Shown here piece after piece: positions 7,570 to 40,366 of a stretch of DNA of 64,000 nt; within the stretch, counting starts at the first letter, position 1; every line of letters begins with the position of its first letter. The DNA is from a virus. The notes under the pieces were generated by a model. The model made no database searches and had not been told where the DNA came from. It worked only from the letters and a program-made list of their open reading frames with translations. Location: the IMG/VR virus record IMGVR_UViG_3300025147_000002; one strand, 5' to 3'. The position numbers and the translations under genes are program-made.

Positions 7570-7590
7570 ATTAATTTAATACTTAATATT

Positions 7591-7932
7591 ATGAATTTTG
7601 GAGAAGCAATTGAAGCAATTAAAAAAGGTAGTTTAGTTATTCGTGAAAAATGGAATAATGAATGTACATTTATTTTCATGAGACCAGAAGATAATTTGTC
7701 TTTTAATTTTGTTATAAATAATATTGAATCATTACCTAAATCACTTAAAGATTATTATAAACAACTTGTAGATTTAAGTATAAGTGATGATAATAGAGTA
7801 TTTACAAATAATAGACAAATTACATTTGCACCATGTATATGTATGAAAATAACAGATGAGTATATTATTAATGGTTGGATAGCAAGTCAAGAAGATATAC
7901 TTGCTACTGATTGGGAAGTTATTTGGCCATGA
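7591..7932 (+). CDS. DUF2829-family protein (Tad2-like candidate)
   Basis: N-terminus MNFGEAIEAIKKGSLVIREKWN and C-terminus GWIASQEDILATDWEVI match the two hallmark ends of DUF2829 as I recall them (M-FgeAlealk-G-kv-R-gW ... W-pSq-DlLA-DW). Confidence 0.65.
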   Translation: MNFGEAIEAIKKGSLVIREKWNNECTFIFMRPEDNLSFNFVINNIESLPKSLKDYYKQLVDLSISDDNRVFTNNRQITFAPCICMKITDEYIINGWIASQEDILATDWEVIWP

Positions 7933-8567
7933 TTCACTTATGGCAAACAACGGGTAATACACTTACTCTTAATGTTAGCGAGATACTTAAATATAAAGAA
8001 CTTGCTATTATTTATAAACGTGATGAAACAGATAATAAAGCATTTGCTCATAAAGAATTTAGGTATATAGACTTCTTATCTAATCGTGAAGGTTACTGTA
8101 TTATGAATGGTCTATCTAAGAAAGAAGCTCATTCACATGCTGTTAAGAATAGTAATCTACATCCCGATTATAAACCTGATACATTTATTAAGATAGCTAT
8201 ATCTAAAGTATATGATGAACTTAATGGTGGTGTAATAGAGAAACTTATAGATAGTAGTATTAGATCACTTCAAATTGCTGCAAGTGGTATAGTACAAATG
8301 ACAGATAAAGCAGAAGATATAATTGATAAAGCTTCTGGTACAGATGAAGATATTGCTAAACTAATAGGATTACTTACACAGATTACTACTATGTCTGCAA
8401 GTATACCTACTAAAGTACGTACATTATTAGATCTAAGAAAAGAATATGATATCTCAAGTAAAGGAACCGTTATCGAACGTGGAGGTAAAGCCTATACAGA
8501 CAGCCTTGACGGAAATGGCGATGTTGAATCTGAAGGCTCTGACGAAGACGATAGAATGGAGGACTGA
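7929..8567 (+). CDS. candidate small terminase subunit (by position only)
   Basis: It lies immediately upstream of, and overlaps, the large terminase. The ATG at 7929 overlaps the previous stop (ATGA). The track ORF opens at a TTG at 7911. Acidic C-terminal tail. No motif recognised. Confidence 0.3.
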   Translation: MIHLWQTTGNTLTLNVSEILKYKELAIIYKRDETDNKAFAHKEFRYIDFLSNREGYCIMNGLSKKEAHSHAVKNSNLHPDYKPDTFIKIAISKVYDELNGGVIEKLIDSSIRSLQIAASGIVQMTDKAEDIIDKASGTDEDIAKLIGLLTQITTMSASIPTKVRTLLDLRKEYDISSKGTVIERGGKAYTDSLDGNGDVESEGSDEDDRMED

Positions 8568-19849: not shown

Positions 19850-20914
19850 ATGGAAAGAAATACTATACCTCTTATAGGAGGACTTCATATTGGTGCACCC
19901 GAACCTATTGATGATAGACTATTAGGTGATAGTATAACTGAATATTTAGTTAGAGTTCCTAAACAACTTAGGTATATAGGTCTACCTGTTACTTTAGTTA
20001 TTAATGGAATCTCTACTAAGTATTGGTTTAAACAAGGTATTGAAGATGGAGATTTAGTATTAGATGTTACAGATGTCGGTAATCCTGCATTTACACCTAA
20101 AACTTTAACTAGTTTAGACGATACTATATTAATAACTGAATTTGATCAAACTACAGATTTATCTGCTACACCTAGATATACTAGTTTAATACCTACACCT
20201 GAACAAGTACATGGTATACCTAAAGATGCTGTATTTGATAAAGTTCTTATGGCTAAAGTAATAGATGATTTACTACATCCGTATCTAGCTCCTACATTAT
20301 ATAATTTTTATATAGATGGTGTACCTAGACTTATAGAAGTAGGTATAGATGTAAGTGGTACTAAAACATTTATGTGGTCTAAAACTAATTATGGTAATAT
20401 TAAAGTCAATAGTGGTACTATACAAAATTTAACAGATGCTTCTATAATTAAAACTGGTATTAATATCACTAGTTTAAGTAGAACATCTGAATTTGTTATT
20501 ATAGATAATACGGCTCCTTTCATTAAATCATTTAATCTTATTGGATTAGATATACATGAACAAGTTATTACAAGTAATACATTTACTATGGAATCAGTAT
20601 TTCCTATGTTCGTAGGTAGTGTAACAAACCTTAATCCTACAGAACAAGATATATCATTAATGGAACGTGTAGTTCAAACTAAAGGTGCTATTACACGATC
20701 TAATACAGTTACTTGGAAACGTCTATGTTTTGCTTATCCAGCTAATTATGGAAGTTTAATAAGTATTAAAGATACAAGTGGATTTGAGAATATTGGCGGA
20801 TTCACTAAAACAGATTTATATATATCTATCAATGGTATTAGTTGTTTGTACAATGTTTATACTCTAACTAAACCTACTACAATTGTCAATTTTAACATGT
20901 CATACATATTTTAA
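19850..20914 (+). CDS. fibre protein paralogue 1 (N-anchor + shared C-module)
   Basis: Its N-terminus is related to the N-termini of the next two genes (IPLIGG...YWF). The C-terminal ~235 aa are clearly homologous to the C-terminus of the 526-aa gene (e.g. FVGSVTNLNPTEQ...CFAYPANYGSLISIKDTSGFENIGGFTKT vs YIGSVTNAAPTEA...CFAYPTTYGDLVSITDTNGFENINGFTKT). Confidence 0.7.
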   Translation: MERNTIPLIGGLHIGAPEPIDDRLLGDSITEYLVRVPKQLRYIGLPVTLVINGISTKYWFKQGIEDGDLVLDVTDVGNPAFTPKTLTSLDDTILITEFDQTTDLSATPRYTSLIPTPEQVHGIPKDAVFDKVLMAKVIDDLLHPYLAPTLYNFYIDGVPRLIEVGIDVSGTKTFMWSKTNYGNIKVNSGTIQNLTDASIIKTGINITSLSRTSEFVIIDNTAPFIKSFNLIGLDIHEQVITSNTFTMESVFPMFVGSVTNLNPTEQDISLMERVVQTKGAITRSNTVTWKRLCFAYPANYGSLISIKDTSGFENIGGFTKTDLYISINGISCLYNVYTLTKPTTIVNFNMSYIF

Positions 20915-20926
20915 AACTATATAATC

Positions 20927-22507
20927 ATGCAAACAGGTATTCCATTAGTACTAGGTTTTCTACCTAATAGTCAAGTCCATTTAGATGCTAGATATATGAA
21001 TGGCGATGTACCTTACGCTAATACAGCAGAGGTATTTAGTTTATTACCTCTATATAGACGTAAGAAATATCTACCTGTTAATATAATGGGTGTAGATTAT
21101 TGGTTTGATACAGATACATTAGATACACTTGTACCTAAGACAAACGTAATAACTGTTCAAGAACCATTAGGTAAATCAGGTAATGATATTATATTACAAT
21201 ATGATACTAATACACTTGCTTTACTTACAGGTAAACTTAAAGTTAAAGATAATGTATTTCCTATATTAGATACTGGTGGTAAGATACCTAGTGCATATCT
21301 TCCTGGTACTACGTCGGATATTGTAGAGAAAGCTAATTACGCTGCAATGATTCTTGCAGTTGGTGCAGCAAATACATTATATGTTACTTTAGATAATAAC
21401 AAAATATATAGATGGTCTGGTACAGTATATACTGAATTACCTACATCTTTAGGATTAGGTACTAATCATGATTCAGCTGGTTATGGTGATGAATCTAGAG
21501 CAGCTTATGATCTTAGACATCAACATTTTCATGAAGGTGGTGCAATTAGTAATTTAGATGATCTAAACAGAGTATCTGGCACTAATACAGGTGATGAAAC
21601 TAAAGCATCTATTGAAGCTAAACTTACAGGTGCTATAACTTCACATACTCATGCTAGTACTAATCAAGGTGGTGTGGCTCCTATTAAGATAGTAGGCCTT
21701 GATATTATACTTGATTATGATCCTACGCAATTTAAATTAGTAGGTGGTCAACTAATACCCGTATATGTTAATGCAAGTGCTATGCCTGAAACTATTCATG
21801 GTCTTAATGCAGGTACATCATTTGCTTTACCAGGTGATACTATTAAAAGTGTACTAGATCGTTTATTATATCCTTATCAAACACCTGCTATTAATGCATT
21901 TGCTATAACTGGTTATTCACAAACTATTCCATTTGAAGTAGGTGTCAATTTAAATGGTAGTAAAACGTTTACATGGAATAGAGTTAATGGTGGTAATATT
22001 AATGCTAATTCAGGTATTATATATGATGGAGTTGCTACAGAAATTCAAACTGCTATCAATCTTACTCCGAATACACTTACTATGAATTTGGATATTCCTA
22101 ACATTACACCTATATCTAAATCTTTTAGAATAGAAGCAATTGCTACTAATGGTGCAATAGTTGTAAGTAATGACTTTAAGTTTACATCTGTATTTGCTAT
22201 GTATATTGGAAGTGTTACTAATGCAGCACCTACAGAAGCAATTGTTAAGTTGATGACTAAACGTGTACTTGCTAAAGGTAATCAATCAATAATTTATACA
22301 TTAGATTTTAAACGTTTTTGTTTTGCTTATCCTACAACATATGGTGATTTAGTTAGTATAACTGATACGAATGGTTTTGAGAATATCAATGGATTTACTA
22401 AGACTACACTTACTTTTACTACTAATGGTGTAACTCAATTATATAATATATATACTCTTACAATACCTGGTAGTCCTACTAATTTTACTGTTACTTATAA
22501 ATTTTAA
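20927..22507 (+). CDS. fibre protein paralogue 2 (N-anchor + insert + shared C-module)
   Basis: The N-terminal ~70 aa are about 50% identical to those of the 496-aa gene (GIPLVLGF..HLDARY...YWFDTDTL..LVP). The central region contains GGKIPSAYLPG, a motif common in phage tail fibres. The C-module is shared with paralogue 1. Confidence 0.7.
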   Translation: MQTGIPLVLGFLPNSQVHLDARYMNGDVPYANTAEVFSLLPLYRRKKYLPVNIMGVDYWFDTDTLDTLVPKTNVITVQEPLGKSGNDIILQYDTNTLALLTGKLKVKDNVFPILDTGGKIPSAYLPGTTSDIVEKANYAAMILAVGAANTLYVTLDNNKIYRWSGTVYTELPTSLGLGTNHDSAGYGDESRAAYDLRHQHFHEGGAISNLDDLNRVSGTNTGDETKASIEAKLTGAITSHTHASTNQGGVAPIKIVGLDIILDYDPTQFKLVGGQLIPVYVNASAMPETIHGLNAGTSFALPGDTIKSVLDRLLYPYQTPAINAFAITGYSQTIPFEVGVNLNGSKTFTWNRVNGGNINANSGIIYDGVATEIQTAINLTPNTLTMNLDIPNITPISKSFRIEAIATNGAIVVSNDFKFTSVFAMYIGSVTNAAPTEAIVKLMTKRVLAKGNQSIIYTLDFKRFCFAYPTTYGDLVSITDTNGFENINGFTKTTLTFTTNGVTQLYNIYTLTIPGSPTNFTVTYKF

Positions 22508-22510
22508 TAT

Positions 22511-24001
22511 ATGTCAGGCATTCCTATAGTTCTAGGATTTGATCCAAAAGCTCAAATTCATTTAGATACAAGGTATCAGAATAATGGAGTTCCTTATATA
22601 GATACAACGGAAGTACTTAGTGTGCTTCCTTTGTATAAACGTGCACTTCATCTTCCAGTAGATATACAAGGAACTCTTTATTGGTTCGATACAGATACAT
22701 TAAATCATTTAGTACCTATACCTGGAGTTAAAGTTATAACATCTGAAGACGGATCTATTATAGTAGTTCCTATTGAAAATGGATTTGATTTAAGTACTAG
22801 TGAAAAACGAACTATAAATATTGGTGCGGGTTTACAAGAAGGATATGGTCTATTTTATAATGGATACACTGTACGTAAACCTCATATTAATACTGATGGT
22901 TTAACTGTTGGTTATGCTATAGCTAATAGTGATTGGGCACCACTACAACAAATTCATTGGGATAATCTTATACTTAAATCTGGAGGAACTGCTCATGCTA
23001 GTGCTAAACTCAAACAATCAGGTAATACAACTTGGTTATTTAGAAGTGGTCAACCTGTAGATGTAGATTCTTTTGGATTTACAGCTGTAGGTTCTGGTAT
23101 TAGAGACGGTTCCACTGCTCTATTTAGATTTAAAAATGAATGGAATATTTGGTGGATTGCTAATCCTTTAGGATCTACTAATAATCTTGCTCAATATGCT
23201 ATAACTAATATAACCGATGATTTAGGTCTACGTAATTTTGGTATTACATCTGGTTTTTCTATTCGATTAGTAAAGAATTTTACAACTCTTACTACACAAG
23301 GTCAACGAGGTGAATATATAGGTAATGATGGTAAACATTATATAACTATACTTATTGGTGCTTATGAATATTTAACTTCAGACTTAGCAGAAACTAAATG
23401 GAGAGATGGAACGCTTATACATGTTGAATCTAATACAGATATATGGGTAGGTCTTACATCTGCTGCTGTATGTGCTTGGAATAATAATTGGAGTTACATT
23501 ACATCTGGAGATAAATCATTTATTGCTGATAAAAATAATATACTTAGTTTTAAAGGTGGAAATGGTATTAATGTGTCATCTAATATTATACCGGCAACTA
23601 TAAATGTTCCTGGTAAAGTTGAAGTAGTTATATCCAATACTAGTACTGTACCAACTGGCAGTACACCAACAGGATCAAATCCTATTGAATGGATTGATTT
23701 TACATTTAAAGATATAGTTGATTCAGCAGGAACAGAATATGTTTTAGATCTTTATGTTGCTGCTCCTTATACAATACTTGGAATAGCAATAGTGGTGAAT
23801 ACAGGAACAGCTGAAGCAACAGTTTCAATAAATAGTAATACCATAATAGGATTAACTGCAAAAGTCGCTACAGTTAATATACAATATTTTGAAGCAACAA
23901 ATAGTAATGTATCTGCACTACATGATAAAGTACATATTAGTATTGGTAATATTATAACTGCTACTTCTTTTACTGGTAAACTTATATATCAACGACTATG
24001 A
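22511..24001 (+). CDS. fibre protein paralogue 3 with diverged FISUMP-like lectin region
   Basis: Shares the N-anchor with paralogue 2. Internal segments YGLFYNGY...FGFTAVGSGIRDG...IWWIANP...GFSIRLVKN and YIGNDGKHYITILIG..YLTSDLAETKWRDG...AAVCAWNNNW parallel the FISUMP units of the next gene. Confidence 0.65.
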   Translation: MSGIPIVLGFDPKAQIHLDTRYQNNGVPYIDTTEVLSVLPLYKRALHLPVDIQGTLYWFDTDTLNHLVPIPGVKVITSEDGSIIVVPIENGFDLSTSEKRTINIGAGLQEGYGLFYNGYTVRKPHINTDGLTVGYAIANSDWAPLQQIHWDNLILKSGGTAHASAKLKQSGNTTWLFRSGQPVDVDSFGFTAVGSGIRDGSTALFRFKNEWNIWWIANPLGSTNNLAQYAITNITDDLGLRNFGITSGFSIRLVKNFTTLTTQGQRGEYIGNDGKHYITILIGAYEYLTSDLAETKWRDGTLIHVESNTDIWVGLTSAAVCAWNNNWSYITSGDKSFIADKNNILSFKGGNGINVSSNIIPATINVPGKVEVVISNTSTVPTGSTPTGSNPIEWIDFTFKDIVDSAGTEYVLDLYVAAPYTILGIAIVVNTGTAEATVSINSNTIIGLTAKVATVNIQYFEATNSNVSALHDKVHISIGNIITATSFTGKLIYQRL

Positions 24002-25281
24002 GTAGTTTAATATATATTTCTGCAAGAAAGATTATAGGTGGATATGGAAGGTTGTATAATTGGTTCTGTACGCAACCGCAAACGAAGGTTAAGTATGGAT
24101 ATTTGTATAATTGGTATGCTGCGACTGATAGTCGAAATATATCGGCGAGTAATGCACACGTTCCATCTATTGATGAGTATATGTCGTTACAGACATTTAT
24201 TGGCGGTGCGTCTCAAGGGGGTAAATTACGAGAATCCGCAATTCTATATTGGGATGCTCCAAACACGGGTGCAACAAATGAATTTGGTTTTAATTTATTT
24301 GGTGCAGGAATGCGAAACGGGTATTTTAGTGTAGGAGATTTTACCGGACTAAAAGGATTGACTAATTTATGGACATCTACTCCATATAATTCAGACTTTA
24401 GCAAAACTTTTTATTCCGACGAATCTTTTAGTGATTATTCTGCTAATCCGAATAAAGATGGTCTTTCTATTCGTTTAATTGTTGTTACTCCTATTGAGAT
24501 AGTTGGAAATTCAGCTATTTACGTAGGTAATGATCTTCGTAGATATAAATGTGTTTTTATTAATAGTGTTTGGTATCTTGCTGAAAATCTTGCAGAAACT
24601 AAATACAGAAATGGTGATCTTATTCCTAAAGTAACAGATAATACCGCTTGGGCTGCTCTTACAACAGGTGCTATGTGTGCCTATAACAATGACGAGGTAA
24701 ACGCATTTGAAACGGCAAGTATCGCTCCGGTGGGATTTCATGTGCCGACAAAGATTGAATTTGCGGATTTCAGAACGTTTTTAGGAACAAATTCAGGAGG
24801 CAAACTAAAGGAAATAGGTTTTAAATATTGGCTCGATCCTAATGTTGGTGCAACAAATGAGGTCGGATTTAATGCAAAAGGAACAGGAATAAGGCTTAAT
24901 AATACAGGGGTTTTTGGTAGGCTTAATGGCGAAGGCTCTTTGTGGTCTACGACAATCTACAATTCTACAATGTCCTATATTGGGGTGCTACAAAATATCA
25001 ACGCTGATTTCTGGGAAAATGGATATAATAATAAGACAGGATTACCGCTTCGCCTCCTAAAAGACGACTCAACATTTACCCCCGGAGATACCCTTACAGA
25101 TATAGACAGTAATACATATCCTTTAGTTAAAATAGGTAATCAGGTATGGACTGCTAGTAATTATAAATGTACTAAACTTAATGATGGTACACCTATACCT
25201 CTAATCGAAGATAATACAGTATGGGCAGCAAGAACGGAGATGGCACAATGTATATATGATAACAATATTGTAAACTTATAA
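23998..25281 (+). CDS. FISUMP (Fibrobacter succinogenes major paralogous, TIGR02145-like) repeat protein; putative glycan-binding fibre component
   Basis: Hallmarks seen: YGRLYNW / YGYLYNWYAA, HVPS..E, GGKL(R/K)E, YW...N.GATNE.GFN..G.G.R, LW(T/S)(S/T)T, G(L)(S/P)(I/L)RL(I/L). The layout is half unit + full unit + half unit. ATGA overlap with the upstream fibre gene. GC/CpG-rich from about 24040 to 25100. Confidence 0.85.
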   Translation: MSSLIYISARKIIGGYGRLYNWFCTQPQTKVKYGYLYNWYAATDSRNISASNAHVPSIDEYMSLQTFIGGASQGGKLRESAILYWDAPNTGATNEFGFNLFGAGMRNGYFSVGDFTGLKGLTNLWTSTPYNSDFSKTFYSDESFSDYSANPNKDGLSIRLIVVTPIEIVGNSAIYVGNDLRRYKCVFINSVWYLAENLAETKYRNGDLIPKVTDNTAWAALTTGAMCAYNNDEVNAFETASIAPVGFHVPTKIEFADFRTFLGTNSGGKLKEIGFKYWLDPNVGATNEVGFNAKGTGIRLNNTGVFGRLNGEGSLWSTTIYNSTMSYIGVLQNINADFWENGYNNKTGLPLRLLKDDSTFTPGDTLTDIDSNTYPLVKIGNQVWTASNYKCTKLNDGTPIPLIEDNTVWAARTEMAQCIYDNNIVNL

Positions 25282-25374
25282 CTGTAGATACAACTGTAGA
25301 TACAACTGAATATACAACTATTAACTTTAAAATAATAATTAACTTTAAAATAATAATTAACTTTAAAATAAAAA
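25282..25374. repeat. two adjacent tandem repeat arrays (3 x 12 bp, 3 x 18 bp)
   Basis: First array: ctgtagatacaa (25282-25293), ctgtagatacaa (25294-25305), ctgaatatacaa (25306-25317). Second array: ttaactttaaaataataa (25321-25338; 25339-25356) and ttaactttaaaataaaaa (25357-25374). The arrays fill the whole gap between the stop at 25281 and the ATG at 25376. Confidence 0.95.
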
Positions 25375-25375
25375 C

Positions 25376-25660
25376 ATGATATCAAATCAATTAAGTGATC
25401 TATTAGGAGAATATGGTGATTTTCCAATTAAAGGTACTGTAAAAGTTATTGCACCTGCTGGTTTATACTTTGCTTCTGCAAATGTATTTGGTGATACAAC
25501 TATGACTGCAATGGAAGTAAATGGAGTTGCTAATAATAGTGATTCATATTTTAATAAAATTATGCCTAATGGTATGTGGCATGTATTTACTAGTAGAATT
25601 ACTGCTATTACTTTATCTGGTGGTGAACTACAATGTTGGACAAAACCTATAGGAGGATAA
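25376..25660 (+). CDS. small beta-rich protein, hypothetical (94 aa)
   Basis: Clean AT-rich ORF between the two GC-rich patches. No motif recognised. Confidence 0.5.
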   Translation: MISNQLSDLLGEYGDFPIKGTVKVIAPAGLYFASANVFGDTTMTAMEVNGVANNSDSYFNKIMPNGMWHVFTSRITAITLSGGELQCWTKPIGG

Positions 25661-25662
25661 CT

Positions 25663-27303
25663 ATGTTAGGTATAACAACTATCGGTATAAAAACTGGTAT
25701 AGGAATAGTTAGACAAGGGGCACATGTGAACCTTTCGGAGCAATTCAATAACGGGAAACTTGTATTGAATTTTGACGATGGGGCAACATCTATGTACACA
25801 GATGCCCTACCTCTATTTGTCGAAAAAGGTGTTACCGCTACGATATGGGCAAATGGAATATTTCCAGATGCTAATGGAGGAACTGGCACGGCTAATTTTT
25901 GTACGTGGACGCAATTGCAGGCAATGTATGCTGCTGGCATCGACATACAATGCCACACATATTCACATATTCGATGTACCGAAAAAACAGATGGAGAAAT
26001 AGCAACTGATTTATTGCTTAATAATACTGCGTTACTCGCTTATGGAATACCAGCACCCACCTGTATGGCATGGCCAGAGGGATTATATGATGCTCGAACA
26101 AAATCAGCCGTTGCGCCATATCGCAAAATGGCGAGATGTTCAGCACCCAATTATGTTTTTACGTATCGTAGTTCTGACAAATACGCCTTAACGTCCTTTT
26201 GGCTTGATAATGGTACGGATGCAACCACAGTAACGGCAAAATCACTACTTGACGGGGCAAAAGCGAATAAGGCGGCAATATTAATGTCAGCACATGGAGT
26301 AAGCGTTGCGGGGAGTTCTGCAACCGTAAAAACATCAAGACTGGCCGAAATAATCGATTATGCGTTAAGTATTGGCGTTGATATTATTTCCGCGAAGCAA
26401 CTTGAAACTCAAATGATGCATAATGAGATATTTGTAGAACCATCTACAAATTTAACCATTACGTCAACAGGTACAGGTGCTGGTGTCGCAAATCTTGTTC
26501 TTGATGTTACAGAGGACACGACATTTACGATTGTAGGTAATGCAAGATTCTATACGGATGCAGGAGGAATAGCTAATGAATCAAATACATGGTATGTAAA
26601 GGCTGGACACGGAATCATTTATATTAAATGTAGTTCTGGTGTATCTACGATAACGGTAGGCAACAGGAAACTATACAAGATAGAATCATGGACTGCAAGT
26701 ACTAACGCTCCATCTCTGGGCGGTAACATATCGTTATTTATTAATTTAGTTATTTTATCGGTGACAGGCAATAACAACCTTTCTGGAAGTATATCAGGAT
26801 TAATAAAATTAATTAAATTATGGTGTTTAGGAAGCAATACTTTATCTGGCAGTATTGCATATCTTCTTTATTTGGCTCAGTATTGGGTTGTTGGTAGTAA
26901 TACAATAGGTGGAGATGCTTCTGGAAATAGTTTATTAACGTCATTTATTGTTGATGGGAACAGTGCAATTTCCGGTAATTCTGACAATATGACGCTTTTA
27001 CAAAGCGCAACGATTGCAAAAGGCACATTCCAATTTTTACGCACAATTACAAATAAACAACTAAGTAGCCTAACAATAGGGAATATAATTCTTGCATCTG
27101 CAAGTATTAATAAAATATTGGCAGACTTCGTGGCCAATAAAGACGAAGCAAAACCATTAACAACAAGAAATATATCATTGTTTGGTTTAGGCGGTTCAAG
27201 TGCGCCAACGGGTCAGGGATTAACGGATAAGGCGACACTTCAGGCATATCACTCTCCAAATAATGATTTAGCATATGTTGTATGGGCGGTTGGAACTCGT
27301 TAG
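25663..27303 (+). CDS. CE4 (NodB-homology) polysaccharide deacetylase fused to LRR-like repeats
   Basis: CE4 motif 1 NFDDG (nt 25768-25782), motif 2 HTYSH (nt 25954-25968), and a later AILMSAH (LxH-type motif). The C-terminal half has ~24-aa repeats with L..L.....GNN.LSGSI (nt ~26695-27045). The ATG at 25663 is preceded by AGGAGG and does not overlap the previous gene. The track ORF opens at an ATG at 25633. Confidence 0.75.
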   Translation: MLGITTIGIKTGIGIVRQGAHVNLSEQFNNGKLVLNFDDGATSMYTDALPLFVEKGVTATIWANGIFPDANGGTGTANFCTWTQLQAMYAAGIDIQCHTYSHIRCTEKTDGEIATDLLLNNTALLAYGIPAPTCMAWPEGLYDARTKSAVAPYRKMARCSAPNYVFTYRSSDKYALTSFWLDNGTDATTVTAKSLLDGAKANKAAILMSAHGVSVAGSSATVKTSRLAEIIDYALSIGVDIISAKQLETQMMHNEIFVEPSTNLTITSTGTGAGVANLVLDVTEDTTFTIVGNARFYTDAGGIANESNTWYVKAGHGIIYIKCSSGVSTITVGNRKLYKIESWTASTNAPSLGGNISLFINLVILSVTGNNNLSGSISGLIKLIKLWCLGSNTLSGSIAYLLYLAQYWVVGSNTIGGDASGNSLLTSFIVDGNSAISGNSDNMTLLQSATIAKGTFQFLRTITNKQLSSLTIGNIILASASINKILADFVANKDEAKPLTTRNISLFGLGGSSAPTGQGLTDKATLQAYHSPNNDLAYVVWAVGTR

Positions 27304-27367
27304 TTCGCATTTGGAAACAACTTGAACTATATATCTATCATTTATTATTAATTTTATACTTATTACT

Positions 27368-27463
27368 ATGAAACAAGTTATCAGACTTTATAAAAATATA
27401 GTTGCACCATCTCCTCTTCCAGATGAAGATCTTTCTCTTATTATAGCTGATGGTGGTAGTTGA
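27368..27463 (+). CDS. micro-ORF A (31 aa), paralogue of micro-ORF B
   Basis: Hand-translated: MKQVIRLYKNIVAPSPLPDEDLSLIIADGGS. It is preceded by atatctatcatttat (27331-27345) and ttattactATGaaa, both of which recur upstream of micro-ORF B. Confidence 0.35.
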   Translation: MKQVIRLYKNIVAPSPLPDEDLSLIIADGGS

Positions 27464-27574
27464 CATTTAAGTTTATATCTATTGTAATATAGTTCTTTGC
27501 TTTATTTACTAAACGAAAGTAAAGTTATTAAATAATATCTATCATTTATATTTACACTTAATACATTTATTACT

Positions 27575-27670
27575 ATGAAAACTATTAGAATTTTTAATGA
27601 AACTCCTACTACACCTGAAGATGAAGATCTTCCTCCTATTAGAACTGGTGGTGGTGTGCCTCGTGTATGA
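27575..27670 (+). CDS. micro-ORF B (31 aa), paralogue of micro-ORF A
   Basis: Hand-translated: MKTIRIFNETPTTPEDEDLPPIRTGGGVPRV. Same leader elements (27535-27549). Its stop overlaps the ATG of the downstream 4-TM gene (ATGA at 27667-27670). Confidence 0.4.
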   Translation: MKTIRIFNETPTTPEDEDLPPIRTGGGVPRV

Positions 27671-28107
27671 ATAAATTAGTTTATAAAATAATAGATATTT
27701 TATCTATTGAGATTATTAAAGTAGTTCCTATTATAATCACTATGTGGTTACTAGTAGTAACTACTTTACTATTAAATCATGTTAAACATGCAGATTTAGA
27801 ATATTCTATACTTGGACATTCACTTATATATAATGTTAGTTGGTTATGTCTATCTATTAAATATAGATTTTGTATTTGGCATAGAGTATTAATATATAAT
27901 CTTATACTTATAAATATACTTGAATGGATTAATAATAGATTTCAAGTATTTACTAATAAAGAAGTAATATACACTATGACTGTATTACTTTGTGTAACTA
28001 TATTTATTTCATTAATACTTAAATTTAAATATGGGTGTATTAAAAGAGTTACCAATAATCATATTAAGAAAATTACTACTACATGCTATAGAAATGATAG
28101 ATACTAA
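27667..28107 (+). CDS. polytopic membrane protein (about 4 TM), hypothetical
   Basis: 146-aa ORF with four hydrophobic segments (VVPIIITMWLLVVTTLLL, SLIYNVSWLCLSI, VLIYNLILINILEWI, YTMTVLLCVTIFISLIL). Basic C-terminus. Confidence 0.55.
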   Translation: MNKLVYKIIDILSIEIIKVVPIIITMWLLVVTTLLLNHVKHADLEYSILGHSLIYNVSWLCLSIKYRFCIWHRVLIYNLILINILEWINNRFQVFTNKEVIYTMTVLLCVTIFISLILKFKYGCIKRVTNNHIKKITTTCYRNDRY

Positions 28108-28357
28108 TCAATGTCCTCGTATATCGGATGATGATATTATTATAATATCTAATATTTTAAATCCTCCTAAAACACTTGGTCGAGAAGCAGCAGCTAAACA
28201 TCTTAAAGTTAGTTTAACTGAATTTCATAAACTTAGAAATGATCATATTATACCTGATCCACGATCTGTTGTAGGACTTAAAGAATTACAATACTACACA
28301 TTAGATTTAGATAAATGTTTGCCATTAATACAATTACGAGCTACTAACACACGTTAG
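28094..28357 (+). CDS. HTH_17 / excisionase-MerR-like DNA-binding protein
   Basis: LGREAAAKHLKVSLTEFHKLRNDHIIPDP fits the L-x-x-EAA-x-x-L-x-VS-x-x-T-x-x-x-L-x-x-x-x-x-IP helix-turn-helix pattern. The track ORF opens at 28031. The internal ATG at 28094 cuts the overlap with the membrane gene to 14 nt. Confidence 0.55.
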   Translation: MIDTNQCPRISDDDIIIISNILNPPKTLGREAAAKHLKVSLTEFHKLRNDHIIPDPRSVVGLKELQYYTLDLDKCLPLIQLRATNTR

Positions 28358-28377
28358 TGGCTCTTTTGTTTAGTATA

Positions 28378-28385
28378 TATCTTTG
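28378..28385 (+). promoter_or_regulatory. -7 box candidate (TATCTTTG)
   Basis: Matches TAnnTTTG, 28 nt upstream of the ATG at 28414. A TTTG at 28365-28368 is only 9 nt upstream, too close to serve as a canonical -33 element. Confidence 0.35.
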
Positions 28386-28413
28386 AGTATTATTAATTTA
28401 ATACTTATAAGTT

Positions 28414-29226
28414 ATGACATTAGGTGAATCAGCCGTAGTACCCGTATTAGGTGGAAACGGCATGGGTGGAGCAGGTTTAGGTATTGGTGGTGGTGTACTT
28501 GGAGGTCTACTTGCGGGTGGATTAGGTGGTGCGCTAGTAGGTGGATTAATGGGAAATCGTGGTGGATGGGGTGGAAATGGTTATGGTGGTGGTGCTCCAG
28601 CTGCATCAGCAGTAGCATCTGAAATTGTATTAACTCCAACACTGAATGCAATTCAAAATCAAATTAATGGGATTAGTGATACACTAAATGCTCACAACAT
28701 TGATGCAGGTTTAACATCAATTAATCAGAACATCTCCGGCACATCTCGTGATTTAGGAAGAGATGTTGCTAATCTTTCGACTGCTCAGGCGAATGGTAAT
28801 TTTGTAACACTTACTTCTATCAATGGATTAGGTCGTGATGTAGCTGCACAAGCTAACCAGAATGCACTTCAACAGCTGAATAGCTTTAATAATCTTACTA
28901 CAACTACATTACAGGGTTTTAATAGTTCTGCGATGCAGATTCAAAATGCAACTAACCAAATTATTGCACAAGGTTCTGCTAATGCTGCTGCTGTTGCTAC
29001 TGGATTTTGTAATATTAGTAAAGAATTAGCAACTTGTTGTTGCGAAGTAAAACAAATGATTCAGTCAGATGGTAATCTTACTCGTGCACTTATTAATGAT
29101 ACTAACATGCAAAATCTTAGGGATCAACTTGCAACGGCTAATGGTAAAGTTAGTAACAATGAACAGAATCAGTATTTATTAAATACTATTCTTACTCATG
29201 TTAAACCTAGTTCTACAATTGTTTAA
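28414..29226 (+). CDS. glycine-zipper / N,Q-rich protein with Cys cluster, hypothetical
   Basis: N-terminal ~65 aa: GGNGMGGAGLGIGGGVLGGLLAGGLGGALVGGLMGNRGGWGGNGYGGG. This is followed by an N/Q/A-rich helical region with an internal LGRDVA repeat and a CNISKELATCCC cluster. The gene is flanked by a promoter-like box and a strong terminator. Confidence 0.7.
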   Translation: MTLGESAVVPVLGGNGMGGAGLGIGGGVLGGLLAGGLGGALVGGLMGNRGGWGGNGYGGGAPAASAVASEIVLTPTLNAIQNQINGISDTLNAHNIDAGLTSINQNISGTSRDLGRDVANLSTAQANGNFVTLTSINGLGRDVAAQANQNALQQLNSFNNLTTTTLQGFNSSAMQIQNATNQIIAQGSANAAAVATGFCNISKELATCCCEVKQMIQSDGNLTRALINDTNMQNLRDQLATANGKVSNNEQNQYLLNTILTHVKPSSTIV

Positions 29227-29234
29227 TTTAAACC

Positions 29235-29264
29235 AAAAGGAGGTGTAACAACTTCCTTTTATTT
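29235..29264 (+). terminator. rho-independent terminator
   Basis: aaaaggaggt (29235-29244), loop gtaaca, acttcctttt (29251-29260). This is a 10-bp stem with one G-U pair, and the 3' arm ends in TTTT followed by ATTT. It starts 9 nt after the stop at 29226. Confidence 0.7.
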
Positions 29265-29278
29265 AAAACTTAAAAGTC

Positions 29279-29575
29279 ATGATAAGCCCACTACCAATTG
29301 GTATATTTGCTGTTACAGTTGCAGTAGTTAATAAACATAGGTCTTTAATTAGATTTCAAAATACTTCAGCTGCACAAGTTATATATTTAAAAAAGATACC
29401 TTTAGCTGGTGTTATAACACCTGTATCTTTTTCTGATTATGAAGTTATATTATTTCCTCTTGCAAGTGTTACTGAAGTAGGAGATGATTTTTCTACAAAT
29501 TCAATATCTGGATTTCAAGCTATAAGTTCTGCTATTGGTGGAACATTAGCAATTTATGAAACTCAAAAATTATAA
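29279..29575 (+). CDS. hypothetical protein (98 aa)
   Basis: Clean ORF, first in a tight four-gene cluster. No motif recognised. Confidence 0.5.
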   Translation: MISPLPIGIFAVTVAVVNKHRSLIRFQNTSAAQVIYLKKIPLAGVITPVSFSDYEVILFPLASVTEVGDDFSTNSISGFQAISSAIGGTLAIYETQKL

Positions 29576-29578
29576 GTT

Positions 29579-29767
29579 ATGACAGATGAAACTTATCAGG
29601 AACCAGTATATAGTATACCTGTTTCTAAAGTAATGGAAATTGTTCTTACAGAAGAACGTACTAAGATACGTAAATATCTATATGATAGTTATGGTGAAAC
29701 TACAGCTAAATGTTTAGATACATATCCTATTACAGAATCTGAAATACTCAAACTTTTTAAAGCATAA
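29579..29767 (+). CDS. hypothetical protein (62 aa)
   Basis: Small ORF with 3-nt spacing on both sides. No motif recognised. Confidence 0.45.
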   Translation: MTDETYQEPVYSIPVSKVMEIVLTEERTKIRKYLYDSYGETTAKCLDTYPITESEILKLFKA

Positions 29768-29770
29768 ATA

Positions 29771-30046
29771 ATGGAAACTTTAACAGCTGATCTTGGAGTT
29801 AAACAAGTACCTGCTTATATGGCAATATCTGGTACACCTGATGTATATCCTAAAGTAGAAGATTTAACATTTAGAACATATGTAATTAGTGAAGATCAAG
29901 CACGTAGATTATTGATTGGTATTCAAGCTCTAGTTAATGCTATAGGTGCTGAACCAATAATACAAGTTGTATCAGCTATAGAAAAGAATCCCAGTTTACT
30001 TTCAAAAGCTATGAATTATTTACCTACTTTAATGAAGTTTGTATGA
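29771..30046 (+). CDS. hypothetical protein (91 aa)
   Basis: Clean ORF. ATGA overlap with the next gene. Confidence 0.5.
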   Translation: METLTADLGVKQVPAYMAISGTPDVYPKVEDLTFRTYVISEDQARRLLIGIQALVNAIGAEPIIQVVSAIEKNPSLLSKAMNYLPTLMKFV

Positions 30047-30525
30047 AAGATATAAGTAAGTTTAGAAGTATGATTGATCTTACTTCTAGTAAACCTGATG
30101 CAGATGTTTTAATGAAAGAGTTGACAACTATCATTGAAGGTCATCTTATAGATGTAAAAGAAGTTAATCCTAAACTCTATTGGGAAACTATAAATAAAAT
30201 ACATGTACTATTAAATGGTTATTCTTTTGACGAAGAATATGCTTTATACGCAGTATCACAAATGGATAATGAGGATGGCACTAAAGGTGAACATTGGAAT
30301 ATCGTAGATACAACTAATGCTGCTAGAAGTGTAGGTATAACTTTTGATAAATGTAATGAATGGGATTGGTACTATGTACTTAACATGATATATTCAGATT
30401 ATTTTAAAACTATTGTTAGTAATACTAGTATGTATATATCGTTAACTAAAGATTGGCTTATGGATAAAGATGCTCCACAAGGTAAGGCTTTCCGATATTG
30501 GTGTATGGTGTCACAACATTGTTAA
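30043..30525 (+). CDS. hypothetical protein (160 aa)
   Basis: Clean ORF, W/Y-rich. No family named with confidence. Confidence 0.55.
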   Translation: MKDISKFRSMIDLTSSKPDADVLMKELTTIIEGHLIDVKEVNPKLYWETINKIHVLLNGYSFDEEYALYAVSQMDNEDGTKGEHWNIVDTTNAARSVGITFDKCNEWDWYYVLNMIYSDYFKTIVSNTSMYISLTKDWLMDKDAPQGKAFRYWCMVSQHC

Positions 30526-38356: not shown

Positions 38357-40366
38357 ATGAAACGAAGATATAAAGAAGGTGGTGTACTACCTAATGGTAT
38401 GTTAGAAGAAGTAAGTATAACGGCTAAACGTCAAATTGCTCAACCGGTACAAATTGATACTGCTACAATTACAGCTAAACGTAGACCTAAACCAGAAGCA
38501 ATGTTGCCTGTTAGATCAGTTAAAGATATTGTTGCTGCACATGGTAATATATTTGGTAGTTCACCTGAACAACGTGATATAGCAGTTGAATATAAACAAG
38601 CACAGCAAGGTAAGAAGTTTATGCCTGCTAGTTATATTACACCTAGACGTAAAATGGCTATTGGTGGTGTTGTTAAATCTAAATGGTCAGGTAGTGAATA
38701 TGGTCAAGCAGCAGTAAGTGCAGGTAGTGGTATACTATCTGGTATGGGTACAGGAGCTATGTTGGGTACTGTAGCTGGTGTTCCTGGTATGGTAGCCGGT
38801 GCTATTATAGGAGGTGTAGTCGGTTTAGCATCTGGCATAATAGGAGGTGGTGCTGCTGCTAAACAACGTGCTGCTGCTCAAGAACAACAACGTCAAGGTT
38901 ATCTTGCTGCTGTAGATGAAAAGAAAACTATGGATGCTACTCGTTTAAGTGAAGCTACATTTAATGAGAAGTCTACACAATTCTATGCTAAACTTGGTGG
39001 TAGAATACCTAGGGCTAGTGGTGCAGGTTTAGTTCCAATTGCTAGAGATATGAAAGCCGTATATGGACCTACACATGAACAATCAGATGGTAATGGTGGC
39101 ACAGGTGTATCATTAGATGATCAGACAGAAGTTGAAGGTGGTGGTAATGGTAAACGTGGTGAAGTTATAGTTGATACTGCAAAAGAATCTAAAGTATATT
39201 CAGATGCCTTTGGTATTAATGGTAATACATTTGCAGATATGGCTATGGCAGTTGGTACACGTAAAGGTCAGATAGAAAATGCTGTTAAAACAAATGAAGA
39301 TATGTTAGATAGAACTTTACAAGCAGTTGATAAAACTGTTTATAATCCTACTAAAGGAACACATACACGTAATGCTCAAAAACTTGCATTTCGTAGTCAG
39401 AAACTTATTGCCAGAGTTGCACAAGCAGATGGTCAACTTGCTAGTTTATTTGATATACAAGAACAAGCTAAAGGTGATATTCAAGCTCAAGGTGAACAAA
39501 TTCGTAAGATGGCTTGGGGTGGAACTAAACCTTTAAACTTAGATCCTCTATCAGGTGGAAGTATATCTACAATGTCACCTAGATATACACCTCTACAACT
39601 TAGTAAAACTTTAAAAGCTATGGGTAATACACCTGATGTATATAATCCTAAAGGTTCGATTGGAGTATCTGGTATGTCAGCAGGTACTATGCAACTTGCT
39701 ACTAATGTAGGTTCTACTTTACTACAAGGTGTTGGTAATATGATTACACTTAATCAAATGAGTAAGATACCTACACCTAAACGTGCACCTATTCAAGGAG
39801 CCAGACTTAATAGTAATTTTGATGTTAGTAATCAATTAGAACAAATAGATTCTACTACAGGTCAGGCTATGAAGTTTATAGGTGATAATGTATCTAATAG
39901 TAATGTTGCAACTCAACATATGAAAGAGATACTACTTAATAAAGGTCGTAGTAAGAATCAATTATATGCACAGAAATATGCACAAGAACGTGGTGTAGAG
40001 AATCAGAATGTACAACTTGATTATCAGAATAGAGTAGCTAATAGTGAAATTGATTATGAGAATCAAACTAATCAGTTTAATAGAACTATGGATTACTATA
40101 CTAAACAAAGTCAAGCTATAGCTCAAGCTACACAAGGTGCTCAAGATGCTGCTTCACAATATGCACAATCTGAATATCAACAACAGCAACTTGCTATGTA
40201 TAGTAGTTTAAATCCTACAGGTGTTAATACTACAATGAATCGTGCTTTTGATCCTAATGCTAAATATGATATATTGCCTGAATATGATGCACAAGGTAGA
40301 CGTATTAAAAAACAACGTTATGGTGGTGCAATACCTCGATCTAGACGTAAACTTAAAGTAGCTTAA
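38357..40366 (+). CDS. glycine-zipper, Q/N-rich putative ejected (cargo) protein
   Basis: 669-aa ORF with GAMLGTVAGVPGMVAGAIIGGVVGLASGIIGGGAAA, a duplicated ITAKR motif, recurring hydrophobic-x-GG motifs and a basic C-terminus. Confidence 0.55.
   Translation: MKRRYKEGGVLPNGMLEEVSITAKRQIAQPVQIDTATITAKRRPKPEAMLPVRSVKDIVAAHGNIFGSSPEQRDIAVEYKQAQQGKKFMPASYITPRRKMAIGGVVKSKWSGSEYGQAAVSAGSGILSGMGTGAMLGTVAGVPGMVAGAIIGGVVGLASGIIGGGAAAKQRAAAQEQQRQGYLAAVDEKKTMDATRLSEATFNEKSTQFYAKLGGRIPRASGAGLVPIARDMKAVYGPTHEQSDGNGGTGVSLDDQTEVEGGGNGKRGEVIVDTAKESKVYSDAFGINGNTFADMAMAVGTRKGQIENAVKTNEDMLDRTLQAVDKTVYNPTKGTHTRNAQKLAFRSQKLIARVAQADGQLASLFDIQEQAKGDIQAQGEQIRKMAWGGTKPLNLDPLSGGSISTMSPRYTPLQLSKTLKAMGNTPDVYNPKGSIGVSGMSAGTMQLATNVGSTLLQGVGNMITLNQMSKIPTPKRAPIQGARLNSNFDVSNQLEQIDSTTGQAMKFIGDNVSNSNVATQHMKEILLNKGRSKNQLYAQKYAQERGVENQNVQLDYQNRVANSEIDYENQTNQFNRTMDYYTKQSQAIAQATQGAQDAASQYAQSEYQQQQLAMYSSLNPTGVNTTMNRAFDPNAKYDILPEYDAQGRRIKKQRYGGAIPRSRRKLKVA

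Follow-up and report, generated by a model that had tools for sequence, protein, structure and literature searches.

Compositionally foreign tracts in the host-recognition block of a new crAss-like phage

Genes of the block and their surroundings

The window, the whole stretch of 64,000 nt that was analysed, is a new crAss-like (Crassvirales) phage. Its genes for TerL, portal, MCP (55.5% identity) and neighbouring structural proteins are homologous and syntenic with those of the nearest known crAss-like phage, cr127_1 (Crevaviridae, Kahucivirus; NC_055886), and neither a DNA-level match to any GenBank phage nor a close relative of the same genus was found. The genes matching cr127_1 (L010) lie to the left (TerL, portal, MCP, 347/336/339 aa) and to the right (237/275/303/1390/669 aa) of a block of 13 ORFs (354, 526, 496, 427, 94, 546, 146, 108, 270, 98, 62, 91 and 160 aa), none of which (0/13) has a homologue in cr127_1; the latter instead has gp33-gp41 at the corresponding position, including one 789-aa protein. 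In phmmer searches the block genes matched only non-crAss phage loci (L005, L007, L092, L114 and others), and they are native in composition except for two genes that we regard as recent imports. An earlier note on this DNA had described two GC/CpG-rich patches with a native-looking spacer between them; this picture is incomplete in that the entire 19850-30525 block is common to non-crAss phages. The features are as follows.

19850..30525, + strand: host-recognition and accessory block, 13 ORFs, about 10.7 kb (phmmer of window proteins against the loci)
22511..24001, + strand: ORF496, tail-fibre-like, native composition (GC3 0.078)
23998..25281, + strand: ORF427, stand-alone three-unit FISUMP (Fib_succ_major) protein, 427 aa (Pfam PF09603, 132.9 bits, three stretches)
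24040..24435, + strand: foreign tract 1, N-terminal scaffold and HV1 (HMM posterior 0.89; GC3 0.24-0.36)
24436..24639, + strand: native-composition island, end of unit 1 and conserved N-terminal half of unit 2
24640..24745, + strand: left edge of tract 2, with DNA conserved across the family down to synonymous sites; candidate anchor for homologous recombination
24640..25107, + strand: foreign tract 2, conserved junction segment and HV2 (HMM posterior 0.93; GC3 0.32-0.40)
25108..25281, + strand: C-terminal half-unit of ORF427, composition native-like to intermediate (GC3 and CpG counts)
25280..25371, no strand: intergenic tandem repeats, AACTGTAGATAC x3.3 and ATTAACTTTAAAATAATA x2.9 (TRF and sequence)
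25376..25660, + strand: ORF94, small 94-aa protein, native composition (0 CpG, GC3 0.084)
25663..27303, + strand: foreign whole gene, CE4 polysaccharide deacetylase with LRR-like body, 546 aa (Pfam PF01522, 71.5 bits; GC3 0.272; CpG o/e 1.05)
27667..30525, + strand: seven native-composition genes (146, 108, 270, 98, 62, 91 and 160 aa), colinear with L005/L091 and L114

ORF496 consists of an N-terminal anchor of about 68 aa common to ORF526 (the two N-termini are 63% identical), a central part weakly resembling FISUMP (Pfam PF09603, 28.7 bits, under the cut-off) and a C-terminal domain of 112 aa (23663-23998), which is also found upstream of the FISUMP gene in other phages. In L163/L164, a 69% identical domain is followed by a FISUMP gene with the same ATGA overlap. 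ORF427 itself has no fibre anchor, and we infer that it is a fibre-associated receptor-binding adhesin. The family alignment (A1, per-segment identities) showed conserved scaffold at aa 15-56, 159-245 and 357-427, alternating with two hypervariable units, HV1 (aa 57-158) and HV2 (aa 246-356).

In agreement with the earlier note, the spacer between the patches contains the final FISUMP half-unit at 25108-25281, the 94-aa ORF and, between them, two tandem arrays found by TRF: a 12-nt unit with 3.3 copies (25280-25319) and an 18-nt unit with 2.9 copies (25320-25371). The separately assembled 2677-nt contig L162 (99.85% identity to 25068-27744) aligns ungapped over the arrays, implying the same copy numbers there. 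ORF94 has 62% identity to a 95-aa gene directly 3' of the FISUMP gene in L007/L097 and 34% identity to a 106-aa gene directly 5' of the CE4-LRR gene in L092. The view of the spacer as native holds for the composition of ORF94, yet elsewhere among phages this gene is a member of the same conserved module. Downstream of the patches, the genes in 27667-30525 have 32-68% identity, in the same order, to those of L005/L091 (a 67-kb integrase-bearing phage) and L114.

The 546-aa gene most likely starts at ATG 25663, which follows an AGGAGG motif and matches database protein P0001 (a start at 25633 was rejected), so that the second patch would correspond to exactly one gene. The protein has a CE4 head (aa ~28-250), a beta-sandwich (~260-345), an LRR-like solenoid (~345-475) and a C-terminal cap. 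Foldseek with its AlphaFold model (pLDDT 74) returned CE4 esterases and peptidoglycan deacetylases, the top match being the virion turret protein of Haloferax tailed virus 1; the body (aa 239-546) also occurs in proteins with GH16 or SGNH heads. The protein is probably a virion-associated enzyme removing acetyl groups from host surface polysaccharide, with virion association and substrate both predicted. Pfam supports the domain calls (three FISUMP units and a CE4 polysaccharide deacetylase). The glycan-directed functions that the earlier note ascribed to both patches are plausible for the CE4 enzyme, whereas the structure search with the ORF427 model (pLDDT 77) gave no significant structural relative.

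Base composition and tract map

The window as a whole has a GC content of 29.6% and a CpG observed/expected ratio (o/e) of 0.52. In 500-nt windows across 23751-27500, CpG o/e was 0.75-1.38 and GC 0.34-0.43, except for 25251-25750 (GC 0.28, CpG o/e 0.20), and CpG density was about threefold higher within 23998-27303 than outside (32.7 vs 10.0/kb). We counted 41 CpG in 24040-25107 (same-length windows elsewhere: mean 10.8, maximum 28) and 65 in 25663-27303 (mean 16.5, maximum 34). Since other GC-rich stretches (28251-29000, 38501-39500 and 43251-44500) have a CpG o/e of 0.2-0.6, the specific signal is CpG and not G+C alone. GC3 of the two patch genes was 0.243 (ORF427) and 0.272 (546-aa gene), compared with 0.112±0.038 (maximum 0.219) in 37 other genes, and NCG accounted for 51/261 (19.5%) of their NCN codons vs 120/3851 (3.1%; Fisher P=1.3e-22). 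GC1 and GC2 were ordinary and the CpG excess extended across codon boundaries; the anomaly lies in synonymous sites and codon-boundary CpG, not in amino-acid composition. It is also the strongest dinucleotide-signature outlier of the window, the top five 1200-nt windows by delta* all having their start between 25201 and 26201. The earlier observation of two patches that break the AT-rich, CpG-poor pattern was thus confirmed, and the three strings quoted as examples are present at 24071, 24121 and 26105.

A two-state HMM run on third codon positions placed foreign tracts at 24040-24435, 24640-25107, 25705-26787 and 26932-27303. These limits are nearly those given before, but a native-like island at 24436-24639 splits the first patch into two foreign tracts, and ORF427 is a mosaic of these tracts with the island between them. 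The earlier description of the patches as compositionally foreign, mosaic replacements in a host-recognition module agrees with this map. In tract 1, aa 57-144 have 91% identity, in DNA and protein alike, to a gene of contig L009 (40% GC, CpG o/e 0.97), which is 82.6% identical in DNA over 24026-24818; the syntenic neighbour proteins of the two have only 34-42% identity. The GC3 of the island (7/76, 0.09, over 24430-24657) has P=1e-4 under the foreign rate and fits the native rate well; the homologous L009 segment encodes the same conserved amino acids with a GC3 of 0.29. HV2 has 30-45% identity to all 16 aligned homologues, and none above about 45% was found. The tail (25101-25281, GC3 10/60) is statistically ambiguous (P=0.04 for the foreign and 0.07 for the native rate), and the opening 14 codons do not suffice for a classification. 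Note that the last 213 nt of ORF427 contain 3 CpG, where the homologous tails in L005, L007 and L009 have 8-11. The closest neighbour also varies by segment: P0025 for HV1 (91%), P0030/P0034 for the central scaffold (93%) and P0038 for the tail (80%).

Of the four tract ends in ORF427, three match the three stretches where the family's DNA is most conserved; the fourth, at ~24435 on the right of tract 1, lies outside highly conserved DNA. In 24640-24745, the mean nucleotide identity among nine phage homologues was 0.87-0.91 and that of third positions 0.79-0.87, compared with 0.3-0.6 in most of the gene; for L005, L007 and L092 the identity over aa 215-245 is 95-96%, and no RNA structure signal was detected in 24640-24745 (z=+0.9). 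The left junction, mapped at about 24040, falls a few dozen nt inside the 427-aa ORF, and the right end, at about 25083-25107, falls between FISUMP units at the start of the third half-unit, both as proposed earlier. The FISUMP-gene boundaries sit in conserved, repeat-unit-derived segments, which are possible recombination anchors, consistent with the role suggested for the repeat units.

Origin of the foreign tracts

The homologue-bearing phage genomes are 40-67 kb in size, with GC 0.35-0.41 and CpG o/e 0.9-1.2, as in the patches, and the homologue neighbourhoods include NinG, DnaB, lysozyme, a GH108 lysin and integrase. The gene order FISUMP, ORF94-like, CE4-LRR was seen again in L092, which shows the reverse pattern, an AT3-rich tract within a 39% GC phage. 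In L090, an AT-rich, CpG-poor 40.6-kb phage, the FISUMP gene alone stands out (GC3 0.33, CpG o/e 1.02), an independent replicate of the single-gene anomaly.

The patches had been read as probably host-derived, a proposal that was not supported: viral matches were far closer than bacterial ones, and for each of the two genes the nearest homologue neighbourhoods inspected lay in phage genomes. Direct copying from bacterial FISUMP and CE4 cell-surface protein genes is nevertheless suggested by the abundance of FISUMP domains in Bacteroidota and Fibrobacterota genomes, and we found 182 stretches of relatives in bacterial genomes and MAGs, mostly of Bacteroidales. Phage and host are often similar in composition, so that composition alone cannot tell a host from a phage donor, and the bacterial set comprised one genome per species (185,579 bacterial and archaeal species), so that a host outside this sample may carry a closer gene. 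However, searches of bacterial genomes for closer homologues gave distant or partial matches only: best-segment identity with the ORF427 family alignment was at best 38-45% (E 3e-40), compared with full-length matches of 47-56% (E 1e-110 to 1e-140) among IMG/VR viral contigs, single-protein scans of bacterial genomes for the patch genes gave nothing, and no full-length bacterial CE4-LRR homologue was found, with partial matches on short MAG contigs. Moreover, the phage fibre modules inspected contain this 427-aa architecture of three units, conserved scaffolds included, and the N-terminus of ORF427 is not of the lipoprotein type reported from bacterial FISUMP members (PMC11661182). Horizontal acquisition is supported but host origin is not, and we consider host capture quite improbable.

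Import of the whole ORF427 from a foreign phage in one step, with sampling noise or subsequent back-conversion or local amelioration accounting for the low-GC3 island and tail, is unlikely. The ambiguous tail and the few initial codons would allow it, and because low-GC3 tracts occur in alleles circulating in GC-richer phages (L092), the donor allele could already have been a mosaic; the significance of the island and its fit to the native rate argue against it. So do the ORF496 C-terminal domain and ORF94, FISUMP module partners in other phages that are fully native here, which implies a long-resident module including a FISUMP gene. An assembly chimera, in which reads of a GC-richer phage were joined to a crAss-like contig at shared k-mers in conserved segments, is very improbable. 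The junctions are at or close to stretches of conserved DNA, at which an assembler may change path, and the left junction at 24040 is outside the independently assembled contig, but L162 spans those at ~25107, 25663 and 27303, at least 5-6 composition switches with one intact reading frame and family architecture are unlikely in a misassembly, and the unrelated contig L090 has the same anomaly. It is hardly credible that no transfer occurred and that GC/CpG-rich codons were kept by gene-specific selection, for example on translation or amino-acid content. The L090 gene could be taken to show an intrinsic family property; however, GC1 and GC2 are ordinary, the CpG excess includes codon boundaries, the island in the conserved scaffold has AT-rich third positions in this phage though not in L009, and the FISUMP gene of GC-richer phages simply fits its own genome background. 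The crAss-like contig L105 encodes a 1991-aa protein into which FISUMP units are fused; these units are fully AT-rich (GC3 0.078, CpG o/e 0.23), so the family has no intrinsic GC or CpG requirement.

We therefore consider it likely that the two ORF427 tracts and the whole deacetylase gene are recent imports into this crAss-like phage from unrelated phages of about 36-41% GC. The 19850-30525 block would be part of a gene pool common to unrelated 40-67 kb phages, and most of it would have acquired the phage's own composition (AT-rich third positions, CpG depletion); the donors would be phages of about 36-41% GC without CpG depletion. No near-identical donor was found (best 91% over HV1), and the deacetylase had no match above 51% identity. 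The ORF427 imports, 24040-24435 and 24640-25107 with one hypervariable unit each, may have entered by homologous recombination, either with a co-infecting phage or with a prophage. Crossovers would have occurred in DNA-conserved scaffold segments of the resident allele, so that the hypervariable units were exchanged and 24436-24639, probably with the tail, remained from that allele. The deacetylase gene would have been replaced as a unit at gene boundaries. Such swaps would retarget host recognition.

Comparison with known systems

The process is already known, and the present phage appears to be a clear example of it, a new case of unrelated phages exchanging receptor-binding modules. Alteromonas schitovirus A5 and myovirus V22 are morphologically and phylogenetically distant, one being N4-like with a virion RNA polymerase, and a tail-fibre module with an accessory gene was transferred horizontally between such phages (PMC10579305). 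Similarly, the crAss-like phage has a block in common with 40-67 kb phages. The module here has a FISUMP adhesin-like protein and a CE4-LRR enzyme instead of a knob fibre and chaperone, and its codon/CpG footprint, known from sequence alone, is resolved to intragenic tracts.

The gp38 adhesins of T2/T6-type phages have hypervariable segments between conserved glycine-rich motifs (PMC3157838). Like gp38, ORF427 is a small protein with its own gene immediately downstream of that for the fibre, and conserved segments alternate with hypervariable ones, the former being the proposed sites of recombinational shuffling; judging from this organisation, it may work in the same way. However, it belongs to FISUMP/TIGR02145 and has two hypervariable units of about 100 aa, whereas gp38 has short loops.

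Deacetylating tail fibres/tailspikes are known from the Pectobacterium N4-like phage Possum (PMC9569702). As in Possum, a host-recognition module protein has a carbohydrate-esterase domain, and modification of surface polysaccharide at adsorption is plausible. The 546-aa protein differs in having an N-terminal CE4 metal-dependent deacetylase followed by a beta-sandwich and LRR-like body, and its virion association is predicted. To our knowledge, the phage deacetylases described so far have the SGNH fold.

Finally, fragment shuffling in phage host-interaction proteins has been surveyed (PMC10684548), and exchange of sub-genic pieces among phage proteins that are unrelated in other respects, with a concentration in receptor binding and depolymerase activity, is common to that survey and the present phage; ours is a single worked case in which the fragments are dated by their composition.

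Composition of the two patches

The window as a whole has a GC content of 29.6% and an observed-to-expected CpG ratio of 0.52, whereas 500-nt windows in 23751-27500 have GC contents of 0.34-0.43 and CpG ratios of 0.75-1.38, and this CpG-rich region is interrupted at 25251-25750 (CpG ratio 0.20, GC 0.28). The two GC- and CpG-rich patches in the fibre module, which the earlier note had noticed by reading the sequence, are real: the strings quoted there were found at 24071, 24121 and 26105, and the sliding-window GC and CpG values both deviate. The features considered here are the following.

19850-20914, ORF354, fibre-module ORF
20927-22507, ORF526, fibre-module ORF
22511-24001, ORF496, fibre-module ORF
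23998-25281, ORF427, three-unit FISUMP protein of 427 aa
24040-25107, patch 1, within ORF427
25663-27303, patch 2, the deacetylase gene, encoding a CE4-LRR protein of 546 aa
28414-29226, ORF270

The density of CpG is 32.7 per kb in 23998-27303 and 10.0 per kb elsewhere. Patch 1 holds 41 CpG (same-size windows elsewhere: mean 10.8, maximum 28) and patch 2 holds 65 (mean 16.5, maximum 34). The CpG ratio stays low wherever else the window is GC-rich, so it is CpG that sets the patches apart. In a scan of the dinucleotide signature, the five most deviant 1200-nt windows all start between 25201 and 26201. The third-position GC content (GC3) is 0.112±0.038 over 37 other genes but reaches 0.243 in ORF427 and 0.272 in the deacetylase gene, and NCG accounts for 19.5% of the NCN codons in these two genes versus 3.1% in the others (Fisher P = 1.3e-22). 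Both genes also have an excess of CpG where two codons meet, and their GC1 and GC2 are ordinary. The anomaly lies at synonymous sites; amino-acid composition is not its cause and was rejected, together with gene-specific codon selection, on the codon-position data and the comparisons with homologues. Scans for promoters and terminators revealed no enrichment.

Outside 23998-27303, the native depletion of CpG depends on context, with observed/expected ratios of 0.18-0.56 for the NCGN tetramers, TCGA and GCGC being the most depleted, except for ACGT (1.13). Our unchecked guess is that the exception comes from CGT arginine codons following codons that end in A.

No composition is intrinsic to the FISUMP family. 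In L105 (IMGVR_UViG_3300045973_000209, 92.7 kb), a crAss-like contig, an ORF of 1991 aa (4638-10610) in which FISUMP units are fused to a homologue of the 1390-aa tail protein of the window is fully native and AT-rich. The 40.6-kb phage L090 (IMGVR_UViG_3300028864_000048) has 31% GC and is CpG-poor, and its FISUMP gene (7995-9368) is the sole outlier, with a GC3 of 0.33 and a CpG ratio of 1.02 versus 0.2-0.6 in all neighbours. The reverse pattern is seen in the phage contig L092 (39% GC), where part of the FISUMP gene is AT3-rich. The L090 case suggests that genes of this family have been imported recurrently.

A chimeric assembly was considered as another cause. A separately assembled contig, L162, is 99.85% identical to 25068-27744 and crosses three of the junctions (the left junction is outside its span), which argues against a chimera, and we rejected this explanation. 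A 100% identical database protein (P0024) is encoded on a 16-kb contig.

Structure of the FISUMP gene, the deacetylase gene and the fibre module

ORF427 belongs to the FISUMP family (Pfam PF09603, TIGR02145), scoring 132.9 bits against a cut-off of 33.9 over three matched stretches; ORF496 scores 28.7 bits against PF09603, under the gathering cut-off of 33.9. By inspection, the N-terminus of ORF427, MSSLIYISARKIIGGYGRLYNW, has no hydrophobic signal and no lipobox cysteine; bacterial members of the family are reported to carry a lipoprotein-type N-terminal signal sequence (PMC11661182). By sequence, ORF427 could be linked to no solved structure, and Foldseek found no significant fold match in the PDB, the best non-significant matches being Bd2740 (E = 0.6) and the C-terminal domain of Lcl (E = 1.2).

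Among 16 homologues, the conserved segments of ORF427 (aa 15-56, 159-245 and 357-427) are mostly 60-93% identical, and between them lie two hypervariable units, HV1 (aa 57-158) and HV2 (aa 246-356), which are 25-45% identical. The nearest neighbour differs segment by segment: the database protein P0025 is 91% identical in HV1 and just 42% identical in HV2. A protein search with HV2 alone scored 90 candidates and missed the identical database protein, so that its best value of 45% is untrustworthy. At the DNA level, the contig L009 (40% GC) is 82.6% identical over 24026-24818 and 91% identical over HV1, whereas its syntenic neighbour proteins are merely 34-42% identical to those of the window. 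A two-state HMM of the third positions divided patch 1 into two foreign tracts (24040-24435 and 24640-25107) with a native island (24436-24639) between them. Only 7 of the 76 third positions in 24430-24657 are G or C (P = 1e-4 under the foreign rate), and GC3 is 0.29 over the same conserved residues in L009. The tail of ORF427 (25108-25281) is intermediate, and its last 213 nt hold 3 CpG versus 8-11 in the tails of three homologues. ORF427 is thus itself a mosaic.

The family has its three most strongly conserved DNA stretches at 24043-24100, 24640-24745 and 25048-25200, and three of the four tract ends lie within them. In the second of these stretches, nine otherwise diverged phage homologues have a nucleotide identity of 0.87-0.91 and a third-position identity of 0.79-0.87, compared with a third-position identity of 0.3-0.6 over most of ORF427. 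The stretch is 95-96% identical to the phage contigs L005, L007 and L092, and it stops sharply at the HV2 boundary. RNA structure as the cause of this conservation gave no signal (z = +0.9) and was rejected. The stretch is a candidate recombination anchor or embedded DNA element.

The deacetylase gene most likely starts at the ATG at 25663, behind an AGGAGG motif, as in the database protein P0001. The protein consists of a CE4 deacetylase head, a beta-sandwich, an LRR-like solenoid and a C-terminal cap. The head scores 71.5 bits against a cut-off of 23.1 (Pfam PF01522, Polysacc_deac_1), and its Foldseek matches to CE4 esterases and to peptidoglycan deacetylases (among them 2cc0, 6h8l and 2c1g) have target-normalised TM-scores of 0.6-0.77. 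Residues assigned by inspection as the canonical CE4 set (Asp-Asp, H-x3-H and a distal His) appear to be present: F37-D38-D39, H98 and H211 are invariant in the CE4 family alignment, and H102 (HTYSH) is present in the window protein and missing in some distant homologues. The beta-sandwich/LRR body was also found with other enzyme heads, namely GH16 (in a 52-kb phage) and SGNH. As a separate observation, the CE4 head (aa 28-250) is structurally closest to the turret protein in the capsid of Haloferax tailed virus 1 (8qpg_TA, E = 3e-8), and the head also has a weak PHROG match annotated 'minor head protein', a hint that some virions are decorated with CE4-like domains.

Upstream, ORF526 and ORF496 have an N-terminal segment of about 68 aa in common (63% identical), presumed to be a fibre anchor, and this segment is absent from ORF427. 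ORF354 and ORF526 have a C-terminal segment of 250 aa in common (43% identical). The fibre module is thus assembled from paralogous, recombined parts. The start of ORF427 overlaps the stop codon of ORF496 (ATGA), and the same overlap is found in the phage contig L163. In the spacer between the patches, ORF94 contains no CpG. The 94-nt gap before ORF94 is filled by two adjacent tandem arrays (25280-25371; 12 nt x 3.3 and 18 nt x 2.9), whose copy numbers are the same in L162, as implied by the ungapped alignment. In the AT-rich gap past the deacetylase gene, a segment of about 125 nt is directly but imperfectly repeated (27331-27457 and 27535-27655, about 72% identical), and each copy carries one of two paralogous 31-aa ORFs (27368-27463 and 27575-27670).

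Source of the patches

The window is from a member of the Crassvirales: TerL (E = 0), the portal (2e-205) and the MCP (4e-190, 55.5% identity) are homologous to those of cr127_1 (Crevaviridae, Kahucivirus) in a shared gene order, and all three also match crAss-type PHROGs. The giant ORFs downstream encode 2590 and 4269 aa. No GenBank phage matched the window at the DNA level (the megablast search with 23000-28000 was empty), and IMG/VR searches with ORF496, ORF270 and ORF354 found no close relative of the phage. A metagenome scan with ORF496 returned two short contigs, both from a GC-richer phage, and no others. The only known relative, cr127_1 (MCP 55%), is without the whole block at 19850-30525 (about 10.7 kb), and no closer relative turned up: none of the 13 genes in the block has a homologue in cr127_1, and both flanks do. 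The genes in the block match those of non-crAss phages in a conserved order, colinear with parts of genomes of 45-67 kb. The order of the FISUMP gene followed by ORF94 is also found in L007 (62% identity), and in L092 the order is the FISUMP gene, four small genes, an ORF94-like gene and a CE4-LRR gene. Seven consecutive genes, from ORF146 to ORF160, are shared with L005 (67 kb, integrase-bearing) and L114 at 32-68% identity. No gene of the shared block is better conserved than ORF270 (68% to L005 and L114), which has a glycine-rich N-terminus, a Q/N-rich body and a CCC motif and whose PHROG matches are all of unknown function. Except for the two patches, the composition of the block is native; the module is therefore an old resident, and the patches replaced parts of it later.

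The earlier note had read both patches as probably host-derived mosaic replacements in which repeat units served as recombination anchors. Dozens of proteins have the same length as ORF427 and match it over their full length with 50-72% identity. The contexts of its homologues that we read are phage genomes, in which the gene closes the fibre module and frequently lies directly upstream of the lysis genes.

Genomic contexts of ORF427 homologues
L005/L091: 67.5 kb, with lysozyme and integrase
L007: 48.5 kb, with GH108 lysin
L009 and L163: phage genomes

With the alignment of the ORF427 family, viral contigs gave full-length matches with 47-56% identity (E down to 1e-140), whereas in bacterial and archaeal genomes the best-segment identity was at most 38-45% (E = 3e-40). 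Scans of bacterial genomes with the single proteins found no match for ORF427 or the deacetylase, and tblastn against GenBank phages gave one match of 31% for ORF427, nothing else, and none for the deacetylase. The nearest proteins to the deacetylase (51% and 49%) are on short contigs, and its next relatives are in the phage contigs L001 (45.7 kb), L092 (44.7 kb; 38%, full length) and L145; its matches in bacterial genomes are all partial. The phages bearing homologues have GC contents of 0.35-0.41 and CpG ratios of 0.9-1.2, and the homologous gene fits its own background there. Since these contexts are phage genomes with a patch-like composition, the donor pool consists of other phages and a host origin is unsupported. 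The atypical synonymous-site composition of the patches fits this candidate pool, as expected for recent horizontal acquisition. The part of the earlier interpretation that holds is mosaic horizontal replacement with anchors in the conserved units; its host origin does not, as bacterial chromosomal homologues are not closer and the viral relatives are much closer, full-length and, in the contexts examined, in phage genomes.

Proposed mechanism of exchange and comparison with known systems

The mechanism with the best support is homologous recombination between this phage and GC-richer phages, either co-infecting or resident. Crossovers in the conserved scaffold DNA of the resident FISUMP allele would have swapped the hypervariable units, and the deacetylase gene would have been replaced whole. 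Virion association, receptor and substrate are inferences here. A diversity-generating retroelement (DGR) and an invertible shufflon were also considered. FISUMP has been reported among the DGR target domains (PMC11661182), which fits a ligand-binding scaffold tolerant of variation. Apart from a chance match of 19 nt, neither strand of the window holds a second copy of any part of 23998-27303, and Pfam or PHROG scans of 23 proteins revealed no reverse transcriptase. Both mechanisms were rejected because the window has no template/variable repeat pair and no inverted copy, and, for the DGR, because the scanned proteins include no reverse transcriptase.

We also entertain, as a possible but rather improbable extension, that a mobile FISUMP adhesin cassette, the anchor of about 100 nt and the LRR family with swappable heads form a plug-in toolkit for host range. 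The three-unit FISUMP protein of about 430 aa may then be an adhesin cassette that is widely mobile and has so far escaped recognition, exchanged whole or per hypervariable unit among unrelated phages including crAss-like ones; 24640-24745, near-identical even at synonymous sites, may be a dedicated recombination anchor; and the cassette may travel with CE4, GH16 and SGNH heads that are interchangeable on the beta-sandwich/LRR body.

It is well established that receptor-binding modules are exchanged in mosaic fashion, and, to our knowledge, host choice is almost unexplained in the crAss-like phages, few of which have been cultured. At this locus a crAss-like phage takes host-recognition genes from a pool common to quite different phages, and the codon and CpG footprint allows single import events to be located with a precision of tens of bases. 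Two candidate families of host-range determinants that can be tested or engineered are the stand-alone FISUMP protein and the LRR proteins with CE4, GH16 or SGNH heads. The value of the locus is as a clean, datable example and as a pointer to candidate adhesins; it brings no new principle. There are published precedents both for a recognition module common to unrelated phage families (PMC10579305) and for the shuffling of fragments in phage host-interaction proteins (PMC10684548). ORF427 resembles the gp38-type adhesin (PMC3157838) in layout only, as a small separate protein after the fibre gene in which conserved segments frame hypervariable ones, and the CE4-LRR protein may be likened, in role only, to the deacetylating fibres of N4-like phages (PMC9569702).
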